Shown here piece after piece: positions 1 to 39,736 of a stretch of 39,736 nt of DNA (positions are counted from its first letter, which is position 1; each line of letters starts with the position of its first letter). Origin of the DNA: Candidatus Avispirillum sp. (GTDB taxonomy: Bacteria; Bacillota; Clostridia; Oscillospirales; CAG-272). Made by a program: the position numbers and the translations under genes. Below the pieces are notes generated by a model, which searched no databases, had not been told where the DNA came from, and was given only the letters and a program-made list of their open reading frames with translations. The stretch is from NCBI GenBank assembly GCA_045632025.1, contig JAZQVW010000078.1, positions 1 to 39,736 on the forward strand, written 5' to 3'.

Positions 1-419
1 AGCAAGCGGTGTCATCCAAAGTGCGAGCGAGCAGAGCTGAGTACATCGAAGCGATGGCTCGCGACACACGACGATGACTGGAAGCAGCGGTGGATGAGGC
101 GTCCGGGCTTCGCTGCACGATGGTTAGAATTTGTAGGGCGGGGGTTTACTCCCGCCGTGCCAAAAGGTCAACATACATTAATAAAACATAAAATTTATGA
201 TTGTGTTGAATGCGGGACGTCGAAGGGGTTCCCCGAAACGAGGTTGACGAGTTTTGGGGGTTCCCGTCGAGGGTGCCGTCCCCTACCGTTATCAAATTTC
301 GCATAATCTAAGCCTAGACTCCTCACCCACCGCTGCTTCCAGTCATCGTCGTGTGTCGCGAGCCATCGCTTCGATGCACTCAGCTCTGCTCACTCGCACT
401 TTGGATGACACCGCTTGAT
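1..419. repeat. Large palindromic unit: ~91-bp near-perfect inverted-repeat arms (1-93 vs 327-419) around a 233-bp core
   Basis: The reverse complement of 1-93 matches 327-419 position for position (i pairs with 420-i), with 3 mismatches by hand count (positions 2, 28, 43). The left arm touches the window edge and may extend further. Confidence 0.9.
90..333 (+). repeat. Core repeat copy A (244 bp): GC-rich hairpins around an AT-rich centre
   Basis: Aligns without gaps to 3678-3921 (offset 3588) with 6 mismatches by hand count. Has inverted termini GTGGatGAGGcGTC / GACtCCTCacCCAC and internal hairpins such as ggcggggg-ttta-ctcccgcc. Confidence 0.9.
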
Positions 420-872
420 AAAACGATCATCAATCGTTTTAATAAGCATTGGAATGCAATAAGTGAATCTGAAAAATCGGGCGAAAAGTTCGTTGATATT
501 TGCAAGGATTTTTTGAACTTAGAGCTCTACTCTTTCGACGTTATGTGGAAATATGCTTTTTTTCACGATTTCAAAAAATCAAGAGCAAAGCACGGCACGA
601 TTATCGCTTGTGTTATATTGTTGTTATTGTGTGTCTTGCGCGGAATCGGAAAGGTTCTTTTTTGGAAAGAATCCTTTTGGACTGGTTTTCTCTATCCCTT
701 TGCTATTTCATTAGCAGCATCAGTCATTATTCTACCGCTGTTTTTATTAGGCAAAAAATCTCCCAAGGTTGCATCAATTATCGCAACAGTTCTTTTAGTA
801 TTGATAATTTTGTTTTTTATTGGTATATTTTTGCTCATCCTCTATGGAGCTGTCAACGCTATAATTGCATAA
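405..872 (+). CDS. Hypothetical multi-pass membrane protein (start uncertain)
   Basis: Uses ORF-track frame 351..872. The first ATG, at 405, lies inside the inverted-repeat arm and has no clear SD. The C-terminal two thirds are strongly hydrophobic (LLLLCVL, FAISLAASVIILPLFLL, VLLVLIILFFIGIFLLILYG). The stop is 27 nt before the next gene. The region is AT-rich relative to the housekeeping genes. Confidence 0.5.
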   Translation: MTPLDKTIINRFNKHWNAISESEKSGEKFVDICKDFLNLELYSFDVMWKYAFFHDFKKSRAKHGTIIACVILLLLCVLRGIGKVLFWKESFWTGFLYPFAISLAASVIILPLFLLGKKSPKVASIIATVLLVLIILFFIGIFLLILYGAVNAIIA

Positions 873-899: not shown

Positions 900-1184
900 A
901 TGAAAATAATAGAGCTTAATCTGAATGGTTGCAAATACCTTGAAGAAATACATATTAGAATACAGGACGCTTTGGACTTTCCTGATTATTACGGAAAAAA
1001 TTGGAGCGCTTTTTGGGACTGCATAAATCGTGACTGTGATGTAGATTTCGTAACAATTGTTGGGACCTCAAGTATTTCAAATGATTTAAAAGAATCAGTA
1101 AATAAGATGATTGAGATTCTTGAAAGAAACAAGCAATTTTGGAACGGTACGGATTGTCCATTTGACTATGAGATAATAGATTAA
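900..1184 (+). CDS. Barstar-family ribonuclease-inhibitor (immunity) protein
   Basis: 94 aa. The motif FPDYYGKNWSAFWDCI matches the barstar core LPEYYGENLDALWDCL (recalled). SD aaggagaa lies 8 nt upstream of the ATG, and a terminator follows. Confidence 0.8.
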   Translation: MKIIELNLNGCKYLEEIHIRIQDALDFPDYYGKNWSAFWDCINRDCDVDFVTIVGTSSISNDLKESVNKMIEILERNKQFWNGTDCPFDYEIID

Positions 1185-1200
1185 AAATGAAACAATGCAA

Positions 1201-1234
1201 AACGGGCGCACTCAGGCGCCCGTTATTATTTTTA
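1201..1234 (+). terminator. Rho-independent terminator after the barstar-like gene
   Basis: Stem aacgggcgc / gcgcccgtt with loop actcag, followed by attattttta. Confidence 0.8.
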
Positions 1235-1367
1235 TGATCCAATATATAACCCCATAAACTACCCCTGCGGCAGTGCCATAGAGGATAACGGGTCCTGCAA
1301 TAGTAAATATTTTTGCGCCGACGCCGAGGACAAACCCTACGGCTGCTGTCAATATAGGACACACCAT
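1212..1367 (-). pseudogene. Truncated duplicate of the spoVAC 3' end (51-codon remnant)
   Basis: Minus-strand frame reads MVCPILTAAVGFVLGVGAKIFTIAGPVILYGTAAGVVYGVIYWIIKIITGA*. Bases 1239-1338 align without gaps to spoVAC 2416-2515. There are 10 mismatches, all third-codon-position and synonymous, and the encoded 33 aa are identical. Confidence 0.85.
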
Positions 1368-1427: not shown

Positions 1428-2360
1428 ATGCGGCGATTAACTAAGATATTGTTTTCTTTTTTCGTTTCTCTGTTTGTGTGTAGTATTGTCTTAGGATTAT
1501 TAGGTCGTGCGTTCTGCACTCGCAGCAATGACAACTATACATCAATTCAGCCGGAATCCTTTGTTCCCGACACAATAGAAACAGTTCTCCAAGATGATGA
1601 TTTAAAACAAATTTATGTATGCTATAATGATGCTAACTGTGTCAATGTGTATACCGAAGAAGGCAAATTTCTTTGGTGTGTAGCTACTCCGTATATGCGA
1701 AATTCCTACTTTGAGTTGCAAGATGATAAACTTATCATTTATAACGGGGATGCTTATATTTATGACTCCCAAAACGGTTCTTTTTTGGGAATTGAAAACG
1801 AAGAAAACCTAAATTTAAATTATGATTGGGAACAAAAATACGATGACCAATTCAAAAAAGGAAGCTTTTATTTTGACAGTTTTCAAGTTTATAAAGCAAA
1901 TGCAGATGGTACTTTGACTACCATCGTCAGCCGTCCTTGGTGGCATCACATATTTGATTACTCACTCTGTCTTGGTATAGCTTTCCTTGGTGCGATTGGT
2001 ATTGGCATAAGTATATTTTTAGAAAAGAAAAAAGATTATAACGCAGTAAAGAAAACTGTTGTTTTCGAAAATCGCAAAGCGAGAATTATCAAAGATTATT
2101 TCAAAATAACAACCATCATACACTCGACATATTTTGCCTTAAATATCATCTGCGCCTTTTTTACCGATTGGTTAATCATCGGCATTATCCCGCTGGCTCT
2201 CCATATGATTATTTCAAGCATTATACTGCGGAATATGAAAGATCGGTTATCGTGCAAATCAGAGGAAATGCAAGTAATTGACTTCTGGGAAACAACAGAA
2301 TTTGGTTCTTTTGTGATAGCATTCATTTCCGTCATCATTGTATCTTCAATAGCAGTTTAA
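1428..2360 (+). CDS. Hypothetical membrane protein: N-terminal anchor, ~170-aa extracytoplasmic domain, C-terminal multi-TM block
   Basis: ATG at 1428 follows SD agaggtga. The track start at 1395 is a GTG with no SD. Hydrophobic segments lie at the N-terminus and in the last ~130 aa. The gene is AT-rich, and I recognise no family. Confidence 0.6.
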   Translation: MRRLTKILFSFFVSLFVCSIVLGLLGRAFCTRSNDNYTSIQPESFVPDTIETVLQDDDLKQIYVCYNDANCVNVYTEEGKFLWCVATPYMRNSYFELQDDKLIIYNGDAYIYDSQNGSFLGIENEENLNLNYDWEQKYDDQFKKGSFYFDSFQVYKANADGTLTTIVSRPWWHHIFDYSLCLGIAFLGAIGIGISIFLEKKKDYNAVKKTVVFENRKARIIKDYFKITTIIHSTYFALNIICAFFTDWLIIGIIPLALHMIISSIILRNMKDRLSCKSEEMQVIDFWETTEFGSFVIAFISVIIVSSIAV

Positions 2361-2397: not shown

Positions 2398-2838
2398 TTA
2401 AAACATTGTCGTAAACCAATATATAACCCCATAGACCACCCCTGCGGCAGTGCCGTATAGGATAACGGGACCGGCTATTGTGAATATCTTTGCGCCGACG
2501 CCGAGGACAAACCCTTCACCCTTTGAATCCACCGCGGGGGATGCAACCGCGTTTGCAAAGCCCGTGATTGGCACAAGGGTGCCTGCCCCCGCGTGCTTGG
2601 CTATGTTATCAAAAATGCCGATGCCCGTCAGCAGCGCAGTTATAAATATAAGAGTCACCGACACGAGAGTGGATGCCATTTTATCGGGCAGCCATATGCC
2701 GTAAAGCTGTGATAGCCCCTCGGCTATAAGACATATTGTGCCACCAATCAAAAACGCCTTTGTGCAGTTCTTTTTGGAATCCGTTTTCGTGGCAATCGCC
2801 TTGGCATATTTTTTGTAGTATTTCTTGTTTATTTTCAT
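2398..2838 (-). CDS. spoVAC: Stage V sporulation protein AC (SpoVAC)
   Basis: 146 aa. Shows the characteristic FDNIAKHAGAGTLVPITGFANAVASPAVDSKGEGFVLGVGAKIF segment and 4 TM helices. SD aaaaggagc lies upstream of the ATG at 2838. Confidence 0.85.
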   Translation of the reverse strand: MKINKKYYKKYAKAIATKTDSKKNCTKAFLIGGTICLIAEGLSQLYGIWLPDKMASTLVSVTLIFITALLTGIGIFDNIAKHAGAGTLVPITGFANAVASPAVDSKGEGFVLGVGAKIFTIAGPVILYGTAAGVVYGVIYWFTTMF

Positions 2839-2877
2839 ATTTGCTCCTTTTTTTCGTCAAAGAGAGATACATCACGC

Positions 2878-3035
2878 GGTAGGGGACGGCGCCCTCGACG
2901 TCCCGTCCTTACATACACAAAACAAATAAGATGTTTGAAACTTAGATATAATATTATTAATTACAAACACTTCTATCATACATAATAATTTCAAATCATT
3001 TCTTTATCGGGACGTCGAGGGCGCCGTCCCCTACC
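2878..3035. repeat. Perfect 28-bp inverted repeat (ggtaggggacggcgccctcgacgtcccg) around a 102-bp AT-rich spacer
   Basis: Arm 2878-2905 is the exact reverse complement of 3008-3035. The arm motif and the spacer start (acatacacaaaacaaataag) resemble parts of the 244-bp core (cgggacgtcga..gtcccctacc; acatacattaataaaacataaaa). Confidence 0.9.
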
Positions 3036-3146: not shown

Positions 3147-3190
3147 ATAATCATCTAAGTGTTAAACTTAAGAAAGGTACGGTATACAAA

Positions 3191-3568
3191 ATGGCATTTT
3201 GGGACGAACTTACAAAAAGCGCAAAGGACGCGGCTGCGTTCACTAAAAAGAAGACTGAAGAGCTGACAGCTCTTGCAAAGCTGAAGCTTTCCCTCCACGG
3301 GGAGGAATCCAAGCTTGAAAAGTGCTACAGCGAGATCGGAGAGCACTACTACAATTTCCAGCGCAAGGAAGAGGATCACGCGGCTGAGATCGCGGCGCTT
3401 CTCCTTGAGGCAGACGATCTGAACGCTAAGATCGCAGAGCTGAAGGCTCAGCTTGCAACTCTTCAGAACGACGTTATCTGCAAGAAGTGCGGCGAGCAGA
3501 TCCCCGTTGAGGCATCCTTTTGCCCCATCTGCGGCCAGAAGCAGGACGAAGAAGAAATAAGCGAATAA
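3191..3568 (+). CDS. Zinc-ribbon domain protein with N-terminal coiled coil
   Basis: 125 aa. C-terminal CKKCGEQIPVEASFCPICG (CxxC-N11-CxxC), a heptad-like charged N-terminal region, SD aagaaagg, and a terminator downstream. Confidence 0.7.
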   Translation: MAFWDELTKSAKDAAAFTKKKTEELTALAKLKLSLHGEESKLEKCYSEIGEHYYNFQRKEEDHAAEIAALLLEADDLNAKIAELKAQLATLQNDVICKKCGEQIPVEASFCPICGQKQDEEEISE

Positions 3569-3616: not shown

Positions 3617-3976
3617 TAAACGATAATTTAGCGTACTAAGCCTTCCCTGGGGGGAAAGGGGGCGAACCACTTCGTTAGTGGAAGAGGCGTCCGGGCTTCG
3701 CTGCACGATGGTTAGAATTTGTAGGGCGGGGGTTTACTCCCGCCGTGCCTAAAGGTCAACATACATTAATAAAACATAAAATTTATGATTGTGTTGAATG
3801 CGGGACGTCGAAGGGGTTCCCCGAAACGAGGTTGACGAGTTTTGGGGGTTCCCGTCGAGGGCAACCTCCCCTACCGTTATCAAATTTCGCATAATCTAAG
3901 CCTAGACTCCTCACCCACCGCAAGCGGTCCCCCCTCCCCCATGGGAGGGCTAAGGGGTTAAACGATAATTTAGCGT
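3617..3976. mobile_element. Nested MITE-like non-coding element flanked by perfect 18-bp direct repeats
   Basis: taaacgataatttagcgt occurs at 3617-3634 and again at 3959-3976. Between them are imperfect ~45-bp inverted termini (ctaagccttccctggggggaaaggggg.. / ..cccccctcccccatgggagggctaagg) enclosing core copy B. No ORF is conserved between the two core copies. Confidence 0.55.
3678..3921 (+). repeat. Core repeat copy B (244 bp)
   Basis: Gap-free match to 90-333. Four of the 6 mismatches cluster at 3862-3866, in one hairpin arm. Confidence 0.9.
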
Positions 3977-3977
3977 T

Positions 3978-4685
3978 TTATCCCTCGTACTCGTCCTCAG
4001 CAGAGTCGAAGCTTATATAGCTGCAGGGATCAACGTATTCTCCGTTTATCTTCATCTCAAAATGGACGTGGGGCTCTTCGGAAACCTCAACGAGCGCGCT
4101 TTCGCCTCCAACGGCAATAAACGTGCCCTCGGAAACAACAGCCCCAACGGCTATTCCTTCTGGAAGCTCGGGGGAGAGATTTTTATATATAGTCTCCGCC
4201 CCGCCTGAGTGGGCAATGCTGATACAAGTTCCCATCAAGGGGTCCTCCCAAACATTCGAGATAGTTCCGCCTGCCGCGGCAAGTATTCGCTCTCCGCTCT
4301 TAACGTATATATCAATTCCGTTATGTGTTCTGTAGTCCTCCATTGTTACGGAAAAAACGGGAACGTCCATGCTATAGTCCTTAACAAGCTTTCCGTTTGT
4401 GGGGTTTACAAAGCGTGAAGGCATTTTCTGATCTTCAGCCTCGGTCTCCGCCTCGCTATCCTTGCTATCTTCATTCTTTGAAGGGCTGAAAACATCCTCT
4501 GCCACGTCCTTATCCTCATTATTTTCAATAATGCTTTCGCCCGTTGTTTCAAGACTGAGACCGTCGCTTACGTTCTGTCCCATTCGGCTCATAGCCCCTG
4601 CAACTGCGGCAATTATTGCCACCGCCATCAGTATCACAATAAGGGCTACGTATAAATTTCCTTTTCTTTTTGCTCTGCTATTCAT
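3978..4685 (-). CDS. M23/LytM-family metallopeptidase with N-terminal membrane anchor
   Basis: HNGIDI (HxxxD) and HVHFEM (HxH) motifs, with N-terminal TM LYVALIVILMAVAIIAAVAGA. The ATG at 4685 with SD aaagga is preferred over the TTG at 4703. Confidence 0.8.
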   Translation of the reverse strand: MNSRAKRKGNLYVALIVILMAVAIIAAVAGAMSRMGQNVSDGLSLETTGESIIENNEDKDVAEDVFSPSKNEDSKDSEAETEAEDQKMPSRFVNPTNGKLVKDYSMDVPVFSVTMEDYRTHNGIDIYVKSGERILAAAGGTISNVWEDPLMGTCISIAHSGGAETIYKNLSPELPEGIAVGAVVSEGTFIAVGGESALVEVSEEPHVHFEMKINGEYVDPCSYISFDSAEDEYEG

Positions 4686-5433: not shown

Positions 5434-5462
5434 AAAGCCCCCGAAAAAACGGGGGCTTTTAT
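5434..5462 (+). terminator. Rho-independent terminator
   Basis: Stem gcccccg-aaaaaa-cgggggc followed by ttttat. Confidence 0.85.
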
Positions 5463-5481
5463 TATTTATATAACGGAACAC

Positions 5482-5509
5482 AAAAAACCGCCTCGTTTGA
5501 GGCGGTTTT
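5482..5509 (-). terminator. Terminator downstream of ftsZ
   Basis: Stem aaaaccgcctc-gttt-gaggcggtttt. The U-run on the minus strand comes from the a-run at 5482-5487. Confidence 0.8.
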
Positions 5510-5523
5510 AATATGTTATTTAA

Positions 5524-6669
5524 TTAGAAGTAGCGCTTGAAGGCAGGAGCGGGAGCATCTTCCTTCTTATCCTTCTTCTGGAGCATACCGAGAAGCTCGT
5601 CGAGCTCATCATCTGTAATATCGTCGGATTCGATCTCGGGCTTTTCTTCCACAACTGCTGTTGCTGTCTTTCTTGCAATGGGAGTGGATGCCTTGGGAGC
5701 AACCTTCTCGTGGTTGTTTTCAAAGCCTGTAGCGATGATTGTAACCTTCATTGCATCTTCCATTTCAGGATCGAATGCTACACCCCAAATAACTGTTGCA
5801 TCTTCGTGAGCCTCGTTTGCGATCATTGTGCAAGCGATGTCGATCTCGTCCATGCTGATATCAGGGGATGCTGTGATGTTACCAAGGATACCCTTAGCGC
5901 CGGAAATAGATGTTTCAAGAAGGGGGCTGGAGATTGCAGCCTTTGCAGCGCACTCTGCCTTTTCCTTACCTGTTGCATAGCCTACGCCCATGTGAGCATA
6001 GCCTGCGTTCTGCATAACGCTTGTTACGTCTGCAAAGTCAAGGTTGATATATCCGGGAACGTTGATAAGCTCGGAAATGCTCTGTACGCCGTGGCTGAGA
6101 ACGTCGTGTGCGATCTCAAATGCGTTGATCATTGTGATGGGCTTATCGGAAACCTGCTTAAGACGCTCGTTGGGGATAATAACGAGAGAGTCTACGTACT
6201 GGCTGAGAGCAGCGATACCTGCTTCTGCCTGTGTGAGACGCTTCTTACCTTCAAATGCGAAGGGCTTTGTTACGATACCGATTGTGAGCATGCCCATTTC
6301 CTTTGCAACCTTTGCAACAACGGGAGCTGCACCTGTACCTGTACCACCACCCATACCGGTTGTGATAAATACCATATCAGCGCCTGTGAGAGAATCCTTG
6401 ATCTCCTCGATGCTCTCCTCAGCAGATTTTTCACCTACTGCAGGGTTGCTACCTGCGCCGTGACCCTTAGTGATCTTCTCACCAATGGAAATTTTATTTG
6501 TAGCTGCAGAATGGATAAGTGCCTGTCTGTCTGTGTTAATAGCGATGAAATCTACACCGCGAACATTGCTGGAAATCATACGGTTTACAGCATTGTTTCC
6601 GCCGCCGCCTACACCGATTACTTTTATGTTGACGCCGCTTTCAAAGTTATCATCAAGTTCAAAAGCCAT
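5524..6669 (-). CDS. ftsZ: Cell division GTPase FtsZ
   Basis: [17 protein letters not shown] and the tubulin signature [15 protein letters not shown] ggagga upstream. Confidence 0.97.
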
Positions 6670-18350: not shown

Positions 18351-21300
18351 TCAGATCTTCTTTACTGTGATCTCAGCCTTTTCGCCGTTGATATTCCATT
18401 CCTTGGAGATACCGTCGATCTTTTCATATGTGAGGCTGTCACAAAGAACTGCTTCGCAGAAGGTTGCGCTGTCAGCGGAAAGGATCTCTGCGAGCTTTTC
18501 ACTTCCGCAAACGGAAACTGCGATATGGTCCATTACGTCAAAGCCGGAATCCTTACGCATTGTCTGAACCTTGGAGATAACCTCGCGAACGAAGCCCTCG
18601 CGAACAAGCTCATCTGTAAGGATAGTGCAAAGAGCAACTGTGATTCCGTTATCGGAAACGGAATAGTAGCCCTCCTTCTGCTGAACGTCAATGAGGAGGT
18701 CCTCACGGGCAAGCTCAACAGCTGTTCCGTCAAAGTCGAAGTGGATAGCACCTGTTGACTCAAGCTCTGCCATTGCAGCATTGCCGTCAACGTTTGCAAG
18801 CGCCTCTCTGATCTTGCCAAGCACCTTACCGTACTTAGGACCTACTGTCTTAAGCTGGGGCTTGAAGCTATAGGAGGAGATCGCAGAAACGTCGGGAACG
18901 AAATGCGCTTCCTTAACGTTAAGCTCATCACGAACGATCTCGTTATAGTATTCGCTAACCTCTCTGTCTGTCTTTACGTAGATAGCGGAAAGGGGCTGAC
19001 GGTTCTTGATATTAGCCGCATTTCTTGCGCTACGGCCAAGAACAACTGCCTCAAGGATGAATTCCATTTCGTCCTCAAGCTTTTCGTCGATCATAGCTTC
19101 ATCATACTCAGGGAAATCGCAGAAGTGAACGCTGATGGGAGCATCAGAGTCAACTGTGCAAACAAGGTTACGATATATATCCTCTGCCATGAAGGGGATC
19201 ATGGGAGCGCCTGCCTTAGCTGTTGTTACAAGGCAAGTATAGAGAGTCATATAAGCTGCGATCTTATCCTCTGTCATTTCTGTTCCCCAGAATCTTTCAC
19301 GAGAACGACGAACGTACCAGTTGGAAAGCTCATCAACAAAGGAGGAGAGGCACTTAGCCGCCTCGGGGATCTTATATGCGCCAAGGTTATTATCAACGCC
19401 GCGAACCATAGAATTGAGCTTGGAAAGGATGAACTTATCCATTACGGAAAGCTTGCAATCCTCAAGCTTATAATTCATAGGATTAAACTGGTCGATCTCT
19501 GCATAGAGTGTCCAGAATGCATACGTGTTCTGAAGTGTGCCCATGAACTTTCTCTGTCCCTCTGTTACAGCTCTGTCGCTGAAGCGTGAAGGAAGCCAAG
19601 GAGCAGAGTTAGTATAGAAATACCAACGGATAGCGTCTGCACCGTGAGTTTCAAGAGCCTTGAAGGGGTCAACTGCGTTACCCTTGGACTTGGACATCTT
19701 CTGTCCGTCCTCGTCCTGAACGAGGCCAAGAACGATAACGTTCTTATAGGGAGCGCGGTCAAAGAGGAGTGTTGAGATAGCAAGGAGAGAATAGAACCAG
19801 CCTCTTGTCTGGTCAACAGCCTCGGAGATGAAGTCTGCGGGGAACTGAGCCTCAAAGAGATCCTTGTTCTCAAAGGGATAGTGATGCTGAGCAAAGGGCA
19901 TTGCGCCGGAATCGAACCAGCAGTCGATAACCTCAGGAACTCTCTTCATTTCGCCGCCACACTCGGAGCACTTGATAGTTACTGCATCGATATAGGGACG
20001 GTGCAATTCGATCTGCTCAGGGCAGTTATCGGAGAGAGAACGAAGCTCTTCAACGGAGCCGATTGCGTGGAAATGTCCGCAGGAGCATTCCCAGATATTA
20101 AGGGGAGTTCCCCAATATCTGTTACGGCTGAGGCCCCAGTCCTGAACGTTTTCAAGCCAGTCGCCAAATCTACCCTTACCGATAGACTCGGGGATCCAGT
20201 TGATTGTGTTATTATTAGCGATGAGTCTGTCCTTAACAGCTGTCATCTTGATGAACCAGCTCTCACGAGCGTAGTAGATAAGGGGAGTATCACATCTCCA
20301 GCAGAAGGGATAGCTATGCTCAAACTGAGGTGCGCTGAAAAGAAGACCCTTTTCTTCAAGAGCGCGGAGAACGAGACGGTCTGCATCCTTAACGAACGTG
20401 CCTGCCCAATCTGTTTCCTCGGACATTTCGCCCTTGCCGTTTACAAGCTGAACGAAAGGAAGGTCGTACTTCATACCAACTCTGTTATCGTCTTCACCGA
20501 ATGCAGGAGCGATATGAACGATACCTGTACCGTCGCCCATTGTTACGTAGTCGTCGCAAGTAACGAACCAGCACTTCTTCTTGGGAGATACGAACTTAAA
20601 GAGGGGCTCGTATTCCTTATATTCAAGCGCAGCACCCACCATTCTCTCAAGAACCTCGTACTGGCCCTCTCCGAGAACAGTATCGCAAAGAGCTGCTGCC
20701 ATATAATATGTGTATTCACCGCTCTGAACCTTAACGTATTCCTCCTTGGGGTTTACACAAAGAGCAACGTTGGAAGGCAGAGTCCAGGGAGTTGTTGTCC
20801 AAGCAAGGAAATATGCATCCTCGCCTACAACCTTGAAGCGCGCAACTGCGGAGCGTTCACGAACGTCCTTATATCCCTGAGCAACCTCGTGGGAGGAAAG
20901 GGGTGTTCCGCAACGGGGGCACTAAGGACCGATCTTATGACCCTTATAAAGAAGACCCTTTTCCCAGATCTGCTTAAGCGCCCACCATTCACTTTCAATA
21001 TAGGAATCGTGGTATGTTACGTAAGGATCCTCCATATCAGCCCAGAAGCCAACTGTGTCTGAGAAGTCCTCCCACATTCCCTTGTACTTCCAAACGGATT
21101 CCTTACACTTATCGATAAAGGGAGCAATGCCGTACTGCTCGATCTGCTCCTTACCGTTGATGCCGAGAAGCTTTTCTACCTCAAGCTCAACAGGAAGACC
21201 GTGTGTATCCCAACCTGCCTTACGGGGCACGTCACAGCCCTTCATTGCGTGGTAACGGGGGATCATATCCTTAATAACTCTTGTGAGAACGTGGCCGATA

Positions 21301-21464
21301 TGGGGCTTACCGTTCGCTGTGGGAGGGCCGTCATAGAACGTGTAATTCTTCTGACCCTTACGTCTTTCAAGACTTGTTTCAAAAATTCTGTTTTCCTTCC
21401 AGAAAGCAAGAGTTTCAGCTTCTCTGGAAACAAAATTAAGGTCGGTCGGTACCTTCTTGTACAT
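18351..21464 (-). pseudogene. ileS: Type-2 isoleucine--tRNA ligase interrupted by a single in-frame TAG (codon at 20922-20924)
   Basis: Track ORFs 20922..21584 and 18351..20702 are in the same frame. Translation across the junction reads [33 protein letters not shown] ([11 protein letters not shown]) and KMSKS motifs are present. The ATG at 21464 has SD aggaga, and a T-box(Ile) leader lies upstream. Confidence 0.9.
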
Positions 21465-21513
21465 TTTATTTTCTCCTGTAAAAGTATATTTTCGATGTAT
21501 CAGGATAGCAGAA

Positions 21514-21541
21514 GAATGCAGAATGCAGAGTGCAGAATGCA
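21514..21541. repeat. Heptamer tandem repeat (gaatgca)x4 in the ileS 5' leader
   Basis: Units are gaatgca gaatgca gagtgca gaatgca, 50-77 nt upstream of the ileS ATG. Confidence 0.9.
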
Positions 21542-21580
21542 GGATTAATGAAGAAATTCGCCGCAGGCAAATTTCAACCT

Positions 21581-21617
<37 letters not shown>

Positions 21618-24277: not shown

Positions 24278-24298
24278 TTTTAGGAATAATAATAGATT

Positions 24299-24500
24299 TC
24301 GCCCTCTGCGGAGGGCGACCAAGAAGCCCCGCCTACCAAGTAAGCGCAGCTTACTTGCGAACTCCTTTGGGCATTAGGTTTTCCGCTCTCTGCGGAGAGC
24401 GTCTCAGGGCGCCGCCCTAATAACCCGCGACCTTTTCAGAAAAGGTCGATAAAACTACACTTTGAGTTCAGCTTAAACAAGGGACTTTTCTAAAAGTCCC
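24299..24500. repeat. Cluster of six short GC-rich hairpins (REP-like) between uvrC and rsmD
   Basis: Hairpins at 24299-24318 (tcgccctc-tgcg-gagggcga), 24337-24357, 24384-24401 (cgctctc-tgcg-gagagcg), 24406-24418, 24428-24448 and 24481-24500. Confidence 0.8.
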
Positions 24501-38920: not shown

Positions 38921-39020
38921 TAAAAATGCTTAAATCATAAAATTCAGATCGCTTCTGCACATCTCATCCACCGCAAGCGGTCCCCCTTCCCTTCCTAAGG
39001 GAAGGCAAAAGGAGAACACT

Positions 39021-39482
39021 ATGGAAAAGTTTATGAGAGTTGCAATTGAAGAAGCGAAAAAATGCGCTGCGCTTGATGAAGTTCCCGTTGGAGCAGTTGT
39101 TGTTAAAAACGGGGAGATCATTGCCGCCTGCGGAAACGGACGAGAAACAGAAAAGGACGCAACTGCCCACGCGGAAACCTCTGCAATCAGAGAAGCCTGC
39201 AGAAAGCTTGGGGGCTGGCATCTGAAGGATTGCGAATTGTACGTTACCCTTGAACCCTGCCTTATGTGCGCAGGAGCTATCGTAAACGCAAGAATTGAAA
39301 AGGTGGTCTTCGGCGCATATGATAAAAAAGCGGGTGCAATGGGCTCAATGGTAAATATTACGGAGCTTTCCGTAAATCATAAGCCTGAAATTATTTCCGG
39401 AGTACTGGAAGAGGAATGCTCTTCCCTGCTCCGTGACTTTTTTAGGGCAAAACGCGAAAGAGGAACACGCTGGAATAAATAA
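39021..39482 (+). CDS. tadA: tRNA adenosine(34) deaminase TadA
   Basis: HAE (TAHAETSAI) and PCLMCAGA zinc-binding motifs; 153 aa. Confidence 0.92.
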   Translation: MEKFMRVAIEEAKKCAALDEVPVGAVVVKNGEIIAACGNGRETEKDATAHAETSAIREACRKLGGWHLKDCELYVTLEPCLMCAGAIVNARIEKVVFGAYDKKAGAMGSMVNITELSVNHKPEIISGVLEEECSSLLRDFFRAKRERGTRWNK

Positions 39483-39600: not shown

Positions 39601-39676
39601 GGAAGCATAGCTCAGTTGGGAGAGCATCTGCCTTACAAGCAGAGGGTCATAGGTTCGAGCCCTATTGTTTCCACCA
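39601..39676 (+). tRNA. tRNA-Val (anticodon TAC), CCA encoded
   Basis: Cloverleaf folded by hand: acceptor ggaagca/tgtttcc, D arm gctc..gagc, anticodon stem tctgc/gcaga with loop cTTACAa, T arm atagg-ttcgagc-cctat, then the discriminator a and CCA. Confidence 0.9.
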
Positions 39677-39679
39677 TAT

Positions 39680-39736
39680 GGCCCGGTAGCTCAGTTGGTT
39701 AGAGCGCTAGCCTGTCACGCTAGAGGTCAGGGGTTC
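39680..39736 (+). tRNA. tRNA-Asp (anticodon GTC), truncated by the window end
   Basis: ggcccgg-ta-gctc..gagc, anticodon stem ctagc/gctag with loop cTGTCAc. The T arm is cut at 39736. Confidence 0.85.

Follow-up and report, generated by a model that had tools for sequence, protein, structure and literature searches.

The first 440 nt of the window (the whole stretch of 39,736 nt analysed here), probably extended by a further ~21 nt to the left, are likely to be a non-coding composite of nested palindromic modules, MITE/REPIN-like in kind, that interrupts a gene of the MerR family. On the outside, a 102-nt module (here called T) that terminates in an AT-rich hairpin would be present twice, in inverted orientation. 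The middle layer would be a 244-nt core bounded by imperfect inverted repeats of its own, which belong to a ~140-nt family that is common in related gut Clostridia, and the inner layer would be formed by smaller hairpin units within this core. We propose that such modules, which would possess no transposase of their own, spread by inserting themselves within hairpin elements already present or beside them. The T pair may have come about by movement of T-core-T as one unit, as with REPIN doublets, or by a fold-back template switch at the inverted repeats of the core that mirrored the right flank onto the left. We infer that it acts as selfish or structural DNA, in the manner of MITEs and REPINs. 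An initial annotation of the region had described the same palindrome and suggested that two divergent genes share duplicated 5' ends around it. It is partly supported: its geometry held and its link to gene starts did not.

A long palindrome at the start of the window

Positions 1-93 are the reverse complement of 327-419. In an ungapped pairing (i with 420-i), 90 of 93 positions are identical and the mismatches fall at 2, 28 and 43, in agreement with the three mismatches counted by hand before. A repeat finder stretched the arms to 3-110 / 310-417 at an identity of 94%; all other inverted repeats that it reported in the 39.7 kb of the window were of 28 nt or less. Comparison of a single arm with the window by BLAST gave E = 2.6e-41, and window 1-445, folded as single-stranded DNA, has a predicted energy of -174 kcal/mol (z = -23 against shuffles). 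The 1-419 palindrome therefore exists and is well beyond chance expectation. Its arms have a G+C content of 58-59% compared to 46% for the window. Palindromy runs on weakly into the core because the core possesses imperfect terminal inverted repeats at 90-110 and 310-330. As described initially, the right arm contains an ATG at 405, mirrored on the minus strand at 15-13.

The left arm is visible only as far as position 1, the window edge, and its outer junction, together with any target-site duplication, lies beyond the window. On the right, the junction of the repeat with the adjoining gene maps to 439-441, and the right arm reaches 440 when judged by the other copies of T. By direct reading, an 8-nt linker at 82-89, AAGCAGCG, mirrors 331-338 (CGCTGCTT); between the part of the core shared with its second copy and the right T, the remaining linker is TGCTT (334-338). 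The unit is thus at least 440 nt long as observed and ~460 nt as predicted, and the ORFs within the repeat encode no transposase. Searches with window 1-445 by BLAST against plasmid and phage collections gave no match, and Rfam contains no family for the repeat, with sub-threshold matches only.

The arms are copies of a repeat module found elsewhere

We found that the right arm continues beyond the palindrome as part of a 102-nt module, T (339-440, plus strand), which starts at CCAGTC and stops at ...ATCGTTTT. T was delimited by matches in two other assemblies: L002, which is contig JAFXGC010000017 of the MAG 'Clostridia bacterium RGIG6384' (JAFXGC01) from sheep rectum, and L032, a 521-nt ENA contig. 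A BLAST search with the right arm and its flank matched L002 127-26 with 93% identity over window 339-440. This match passes the palindrome end (419) and stops exactly at the gene breakpoint. Concatenated six-frame peptides of the arm retrieved a single ORF, P0121, which led to L032, where positions 223-324 hold the 102-nt T at ~94% identity. P0121 itself is a spurious ORF that spans this further T copy, and the other ORFs inside the repeat are without relatives.

The inner and outer boundaries of T are the same in all three contexts (window, L002 and L032), while its neighbours differ on both sides. In each context T begins at CCAGTC and ends in a hairpin of the general form AAAACGAT-nnnnn-ATCGTTTT. 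In the right copy of the window this AT-rich terminal hairpin, H, occupies 420-440 on the plus strand as AAAACGAT-CATCA-ATCGTTTT. The left T copy (1-81, minus strand) was recognised by comparison of the arms and by an nhmmer profile of T (window 81-2, minus strand, model 1-80, E = 4.6e-26). It is clipped by the window edge, and the two copies disagree at 2, 28 and 43. If symmetric, the left T would run ~21 nt further to the left and take in the terminal hairpin. Run against the window and the retrieved loci, the profile detected four copies only, in three assemblies: T is single in L002 and in L032 and forms an inverted pair in the window. Neither of the single copies is linked to the start of a MerR-type gene. 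The arms are therefore dispersed repeats with no link to gene starts, which speaks against the reading as shared 5' ends.

In L002, T sits within a hairpin-rich module of which T-free versions exist in L010 and at window 24283-24450, suggesting that T is a discrete unit that can be inserted or deleted. Together, the alignments show a discrete dispersed repeat module recurring in other contexts. The complete T-core-T unit occurred once in the data searched. An arm 23-mer had no match in GTDB genome contigs or viral contigs, and a 22-mer common to all T copies had none in JGI metagenomes.

The T-free module of the window (24283-24450) is located just downstream of uvrC, includes the units GCCCTCTGCGGAGGGC, CCGCTCTCTGCGGAGAGCG and GACCTTTTCAGAAAAGGTC, has ~73% identity to L002 130-234 as the T-free counterpart of that module, and resembles the module in L010. 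We also considered an IS200/IS605-style insertion of T 3' of a fixed tetranucleotide and dropped the idea, as the three flanks have no motif in common. The likeness of the T hairpin to a 14-mer of the RGIG6384 genome described below, TAAACGATAATTTA, is limited to AAACGAT...ATCG, and we place no reliance on it.

The adjoining reading frame as a remnant of a MerR-family gene

The initial annotation had taken the ATG at 405 and its mirror as the starts of two divergent genes that both begin with MTPL. With ORF 405-872 as the query, a protein search gave 196 relatives, of which the 120 listed mostly measure 251-257 aa and carry MerR HTH domains (PF00376 / PF13411). Coverage of the query by these listed relatives is mostly 83-92% and never above 94%, and they align from ...HWNAIS onward, none of them to MTPLDKTIINRF. 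Pfam places the MerR HTH at residues 1-67 of the relative P0001 and finds nothing comparable in the window ORF. At the DNA level, the intact gene on L031 (JAZOIF010000063, 2262-3029) is 86% identical to the window, starting from window 439, which corresponds to L031 2596 and codon 112. Because protein and DNA homology both begin only at 439, the window up to ~440 is foreign to the gene. The alignments show a gene truncated at the outer boundary of T.

These results do not support a pair of genes with duplicated 5' ends: the homology that begins at 439 is to a MerR family of ~255 aa, whose members start with the MerR HTH ~112 codons upstream and do not share the proposed N-terminus. The MTPL codons belong to T and are present in two other assemblies away from such a gene. 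ATG 405 and its mirror at 15-13 would hence be fortuitous codons inside T. No ribosome-binding site was visible before 405 or 351 by direct reading. What is left of the gene at 441-872 (plus strand) corresponds to about residues 113-255 of 255 and comprises the C-terminal membrane domain; lacking promoter and HTH, this 3' part of the regulator is most likely a pseudogene. Automatic gene calling would yield a 155- or 173-aa 'membrane protein' with its start within the repeat, when the real locus is a disrupted MerR-type regulator.

Another relative, P0016 on an ENA gut metagenome contig (L033 1069-1626), is truncated elsewhere, at about residue 89, and is preceded by unrelated upstream sequence; no repeat modules were present at this upstream junction. 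In several assemblies, genes of the MerR type seem to lie in a region prone to rearrangement. Sequence similar to the 3' end of spoVAC (2398-2838, minus strand) recurs in fragments at window 1228-1338 and 2405-2515, which are 86% identical to each other. L031 has five such fragments, at 265-441, 2019-2161, 3164-3336, 3937-4087 and 5437-5635. The fragments separate AT-rich genes, namely the regulator of MerR type, a barstar-like gene (window 900-1184) and a gene for a membrane protein (window 1428-2360). The arrangement looks like repeated integration at the spoVAC 3' end or like a cassette array.

The core, its second copy and the ~140-nt palindromic family

The non-coding core between the arms (90-333, plus strand, 244 nt) has imperfect inverted repeats at its ends, namely GTGGATGAGGCGTCCGGGCTT (90-110) and AAGCCTAGACTCCTCACCCAC (310-330). 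As noted before, the same core sits inside a different palindrome at 3635-3958. We located this second copy at 3678-3921 (plus strand) with 98% identity to 90-333. It lies within an intergenic element at 3617-3976 whose arms (3635-3677 / 3922-3958) form a palindrome different from that at 1-419 and far less perfect, and a perfect 18-nt direct repeat, TAAACGATAATTTAGCGT, brackets the element at 3617-3634 and 3959-3976. The sequences just outside the shared core differ between left and right in this copy. The 98% identity of two cores 3.6 kb apart probably reflects recent copying or gene conversion.

Core ends of the GTGGRTGAGG type identify a palindromic repeat family of ~140 nt. The element at 3617-3976 is typical of this family and has an enlarged centre; its right arm shares 91% identity with the copies in L001 and L002. 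Searching GTDB genomes with a degenerate pattern for the core terminal repeat (GTGGRWGAGGMGTCYRGGCTT) gave 30 loci. Sixteen of these are in RGIG6384, others are in related Clostridia MAGs (RGIG8654, an Avispirillum and a Eubacteriales bin), and the rest are isolated matches in unrelated phyla, about as many as chance would give. Within RGIG6384, a ~140-nt palindromic element built of small local hairpins contains the motif as its inner part. Of the 11 matched contigs retrieved in full (9 of them from RGIG6384), 9 have the motif no more than 400 nt from an end, so the family breaks assemblies.

The similarity of the core to the loci found with the GTDB pattern is confined to its terminal 25-44 nt. 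The full 244-nt core was found in two copies only, both in the window, and core-specific patterns gave no match in viral and metagenome contigs. Six-frame and ORF peptides of the core had no relatives in the protein database. The composite reading has to be taken with these numbers, as the data searched contain four copies of T and two of the full core. A half-copy of the palindromic family (CATCTCATCCACCGCAAGCGGTCCCCCTTCCC...GGGAAGG) was also seen at 38955-39010, directly upstream of a tadA-like deaminase gene (39021-39482).

The comparison of the two core copies bears on the question of how the T pair arose. It could be a biological inverted duplication, akin to the inverted segmental duplication offered initially, in which a nascent strand folded back at the core repeats and copied a single right-hand T flank leftward. 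The mirror symmetry is indeed seamless, running from T through the 8-nt linker into the inverted repeats of the core, and the second core copy has differing outer flanks, unlike the symmetric 1-419. Elsewhere T is found only as a single copy. Of the differences between the arms, those at 28 and 43 are unique to the left copy, and at 2 the other T copies disagree among themselves. The left arm, however, has a G at 2, as does the L002 copy, and not the base of the right arm, so it is not a pristine copy. We regard such a duplication as unlikely, though worth keeping in mind. It predicts that the left continuation contains a mirrored hairpin H and a remnant of the gene with a leftward ORF starting MTPLA, and this mirrored remnant is the one form in which the notion of two divergent starts could survive.

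Nested elements and direct repeats

The composite of nested modules that we favour has further layers inside the core. A 28-nt repeat, CGGGACGTCGAGGGCGCCGTCCCCTACC, is present in split form at 213-287 (plus strand), as judged by the intact 28-mer at 3008-3035. It is interrupted by a 47-nt hairpin-rich insert (224-270), with a copy of the hexamer CGTCGA on either side (218-223 and 265-270). This arrangement is probably a nested insertion. The intact 28-mer belongs to a small element at 2877-3035, between spoVAC and a zinc-ribbon gene, where perfect inverted repeats of 28 nt at both ends enclose an AT-rich centre of 102 nt. Homologous units exist in L002 and L006, and the 28-nt repeat of this element is the one that recurs inside the core. 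Rfam gave two sub-threshold matches, whalefall-1 (3907-3952) and mir-2513 (hairpin of 2877-3035). Both were regarded as chance, the latter as an effect of the hairpin shape.

Nesting recurs at several scales. In RGIG6384, some copies of the family carry a 19-25-nt hairpin in the loop of another hairpin which is absent from others, as seen by comparing L008 with L015. In the same MAG the 14-mer TAAACGATAATTTA, in direct orientation, bounds at least four palindromic module families, at times in tandem, with clusters in L015 3240-3680, L025 4400-4800, L010 150-560, L023, L006 and L018. The window holds one counterpart of these bounding direct repeats, the 18-nt pair at 3617-3634 / 3959-3976. The target-site duplications of usual transposons are far shorter than 14-18 nt. 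An integron attC-like site at the 14-mer boundary was considered and dropped, since the GTTRRRY core fits one copy only.

One might tentatively, and with considerable doubt, see in this an undescribed modular system, carried by the window and by related gut Clostridia MAGs, whose hairpin elements enter others at their loops or centres, with bounds of 14-18-nt direct repeats in the related MAG. If so, mobilisation would be site-specific or guided by single-strand hairpins, for example HUH/RAYT-like or recombinase-driven, and the T-core-T unit would be one product of the system. No autonomous insertion sequence with matching ends was found beside copies in the retrieved loci. Next to the family copy in L016 there was no transposase, only a molybdopterin oxidoreductase-like gene, and literature text searches found no description of these elements.

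Comparison with invertible switches and known palindromic repeats

Invertons are invertible promoters of gut bacteria, and the window resembles them in having, next to a gene in a gut anaerobe, a segment of a few hundred bp between inverted repeats. The initial annotation had accordingly offered a DNA-inversion or regulatory switch as one of three explanations, in which recombination between the arms flips the core and changes the expression of flanking genes. The inverted repeats do flank a 233-nt segment with an AT-rich centre, and arms of ~100 nt could support RecA-dependent inversion. A simple consensus scan of both strands of 1-440, however, revealed no sigma-70-like promoter, and neither an invertase nor any other recombinase or transposase was encoded by the window ORFs scanned, including ~9 kb to the right of the repeat; these otherwise comprise a cell-division and wall-synthesis cluster, uvrC, a tRNA synthetase and similar housekeeping genes. 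In length the arms exceed typical inverton repeats several-fold, and they are dispersed repeat modules themselves; the adjoining downstream ORF is a truncated remnant, and the same core is found in an ordinary intergenic repeat (3617-3976). A switch is consequently very improbable. Flipping by RecA between the ~100-nt arms is possible and would have no evident consequence. The value of the analysis is mainly corrective here, as a palindrome at a contig edge could be mistaken for a switch.

A MITE-like element was the nearest of the three explanations. It holds in that dispersed, nested, non-coding modules make up the unit. Like MITEs, which measure tens to a few hundred bp and lack a transposase gene, the window element is smaller than 0.5 kb, non-coding and bounded by terminal inverted repeats (90 of 93 matches in 1-93 / 327-419) that form a long hairpin. 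Related copies are dispersed, can come to lie in or beside genes and break short-read assemblies. As to copy number, the core is present twice in the window, T four times in three assemblies and the end motif at least 16 times in RGIG6384. The window element differs from MITEs in its unusually long arms (at least 93 nt, probably ~114), which are themselves a module found alone elsewhere, and in being a mosaic of several nested repeat families.

The closest known small palindromic repeats are Correia/NEMIS, ERIC and RUP. NEMIS and ERIC are presented as short interspersed palindromic repeats in a passage of PMC3116915. REPINs are REP doublets that form hairpins and are thought to be mobilised by RAYT transposases, and REP singlets are read as remnants of doublets (Bertels and Rainey, 2011; PMC3116915). 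Likewise, the T pair of the window is an inverted doublet with a spacer that forms a hairpin, and T is single in L002 and L032. In contrast to the ~20-40 nt of REPs, T measures 102 nt, and its 257-nt spacer is itself another repeat. T also has a very low copy number (four found) and lies inside a coding sequence rather than being extragenic. The small dispersed repeats (SDR) of cyanobacteria, attributed to Elhai et al. (2008, in Genome Research), are reportedly tiny palindromic units nested in repeats or hairpins. They share with the window the nested palindromic units and are set apart by lineage, sequences and sizes. The window element is, in kind, a bacterial MITE-/REPIN-like palindromic repeat and, in detail, an undescribed family with long modular arms and pronounced nesting. 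These comparisons document nested palindromic repeats in uncultured ruminant and gut Clostridia, where they fragment metagenome assemblies.

The window ends and a possible assembly artefact

Since the window begins within an arm, we asked whether the palindrome might be an artefact of assembly or strain mixture, in which the contig ran through the repeat and back along a variant of the flank to give a false terminal hairpin. The left arm is clipped at position 1, which is probably a contig end. The right end of the window falls 57 nt into a second tRNA gene (39601-39736 region) directly after tRNA-Val, and this gene reads as a putative tRNA-Asp with anticodon GTC. The truncated tRNA gene and the odd length of the window imply that the window is probably a whole contig, and suggest that both of its ends lie in repeats, the right one in a repeated tRNA cluster. 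Contigs of the related MAG RGIG6384 also often end in the ~140-nt family. The arms, however, are not identical but differ by three mismatches, and, given the asymmetry of the 233-nt centre, real reads must contain k-mers in which the left arm is joined to the left end of the core. A fold-back artefact would be expected to have identical arms and a loop of zero or k-mer length at a contig end, and this is not the structure seen, although the location at a probable contig end would fit an artefact. None of the 33 other loci examined had a long inverted repeat at a contig end. We therefore hold an artefact to be improbable. Reasoning from the contig ends about k-mer size gave no consistent account of why the contig stops at position 1, and exact-protein look-ups for three window genes returned no match.

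Finally, a class I tRNA synthetase gene of the window, which we read as ileS-like, is split into two ORFs on the minus strand, 20922-21584 and 18351-20702. The split is due to one in-frame TAG (20922-20924) within the conserved stretch ...GHKIGP*CPRCGT..., at which neither an insertion nor an inverted repeat is present. The TAG could represent a sequencing or strain error, a pseudogene or recoding.
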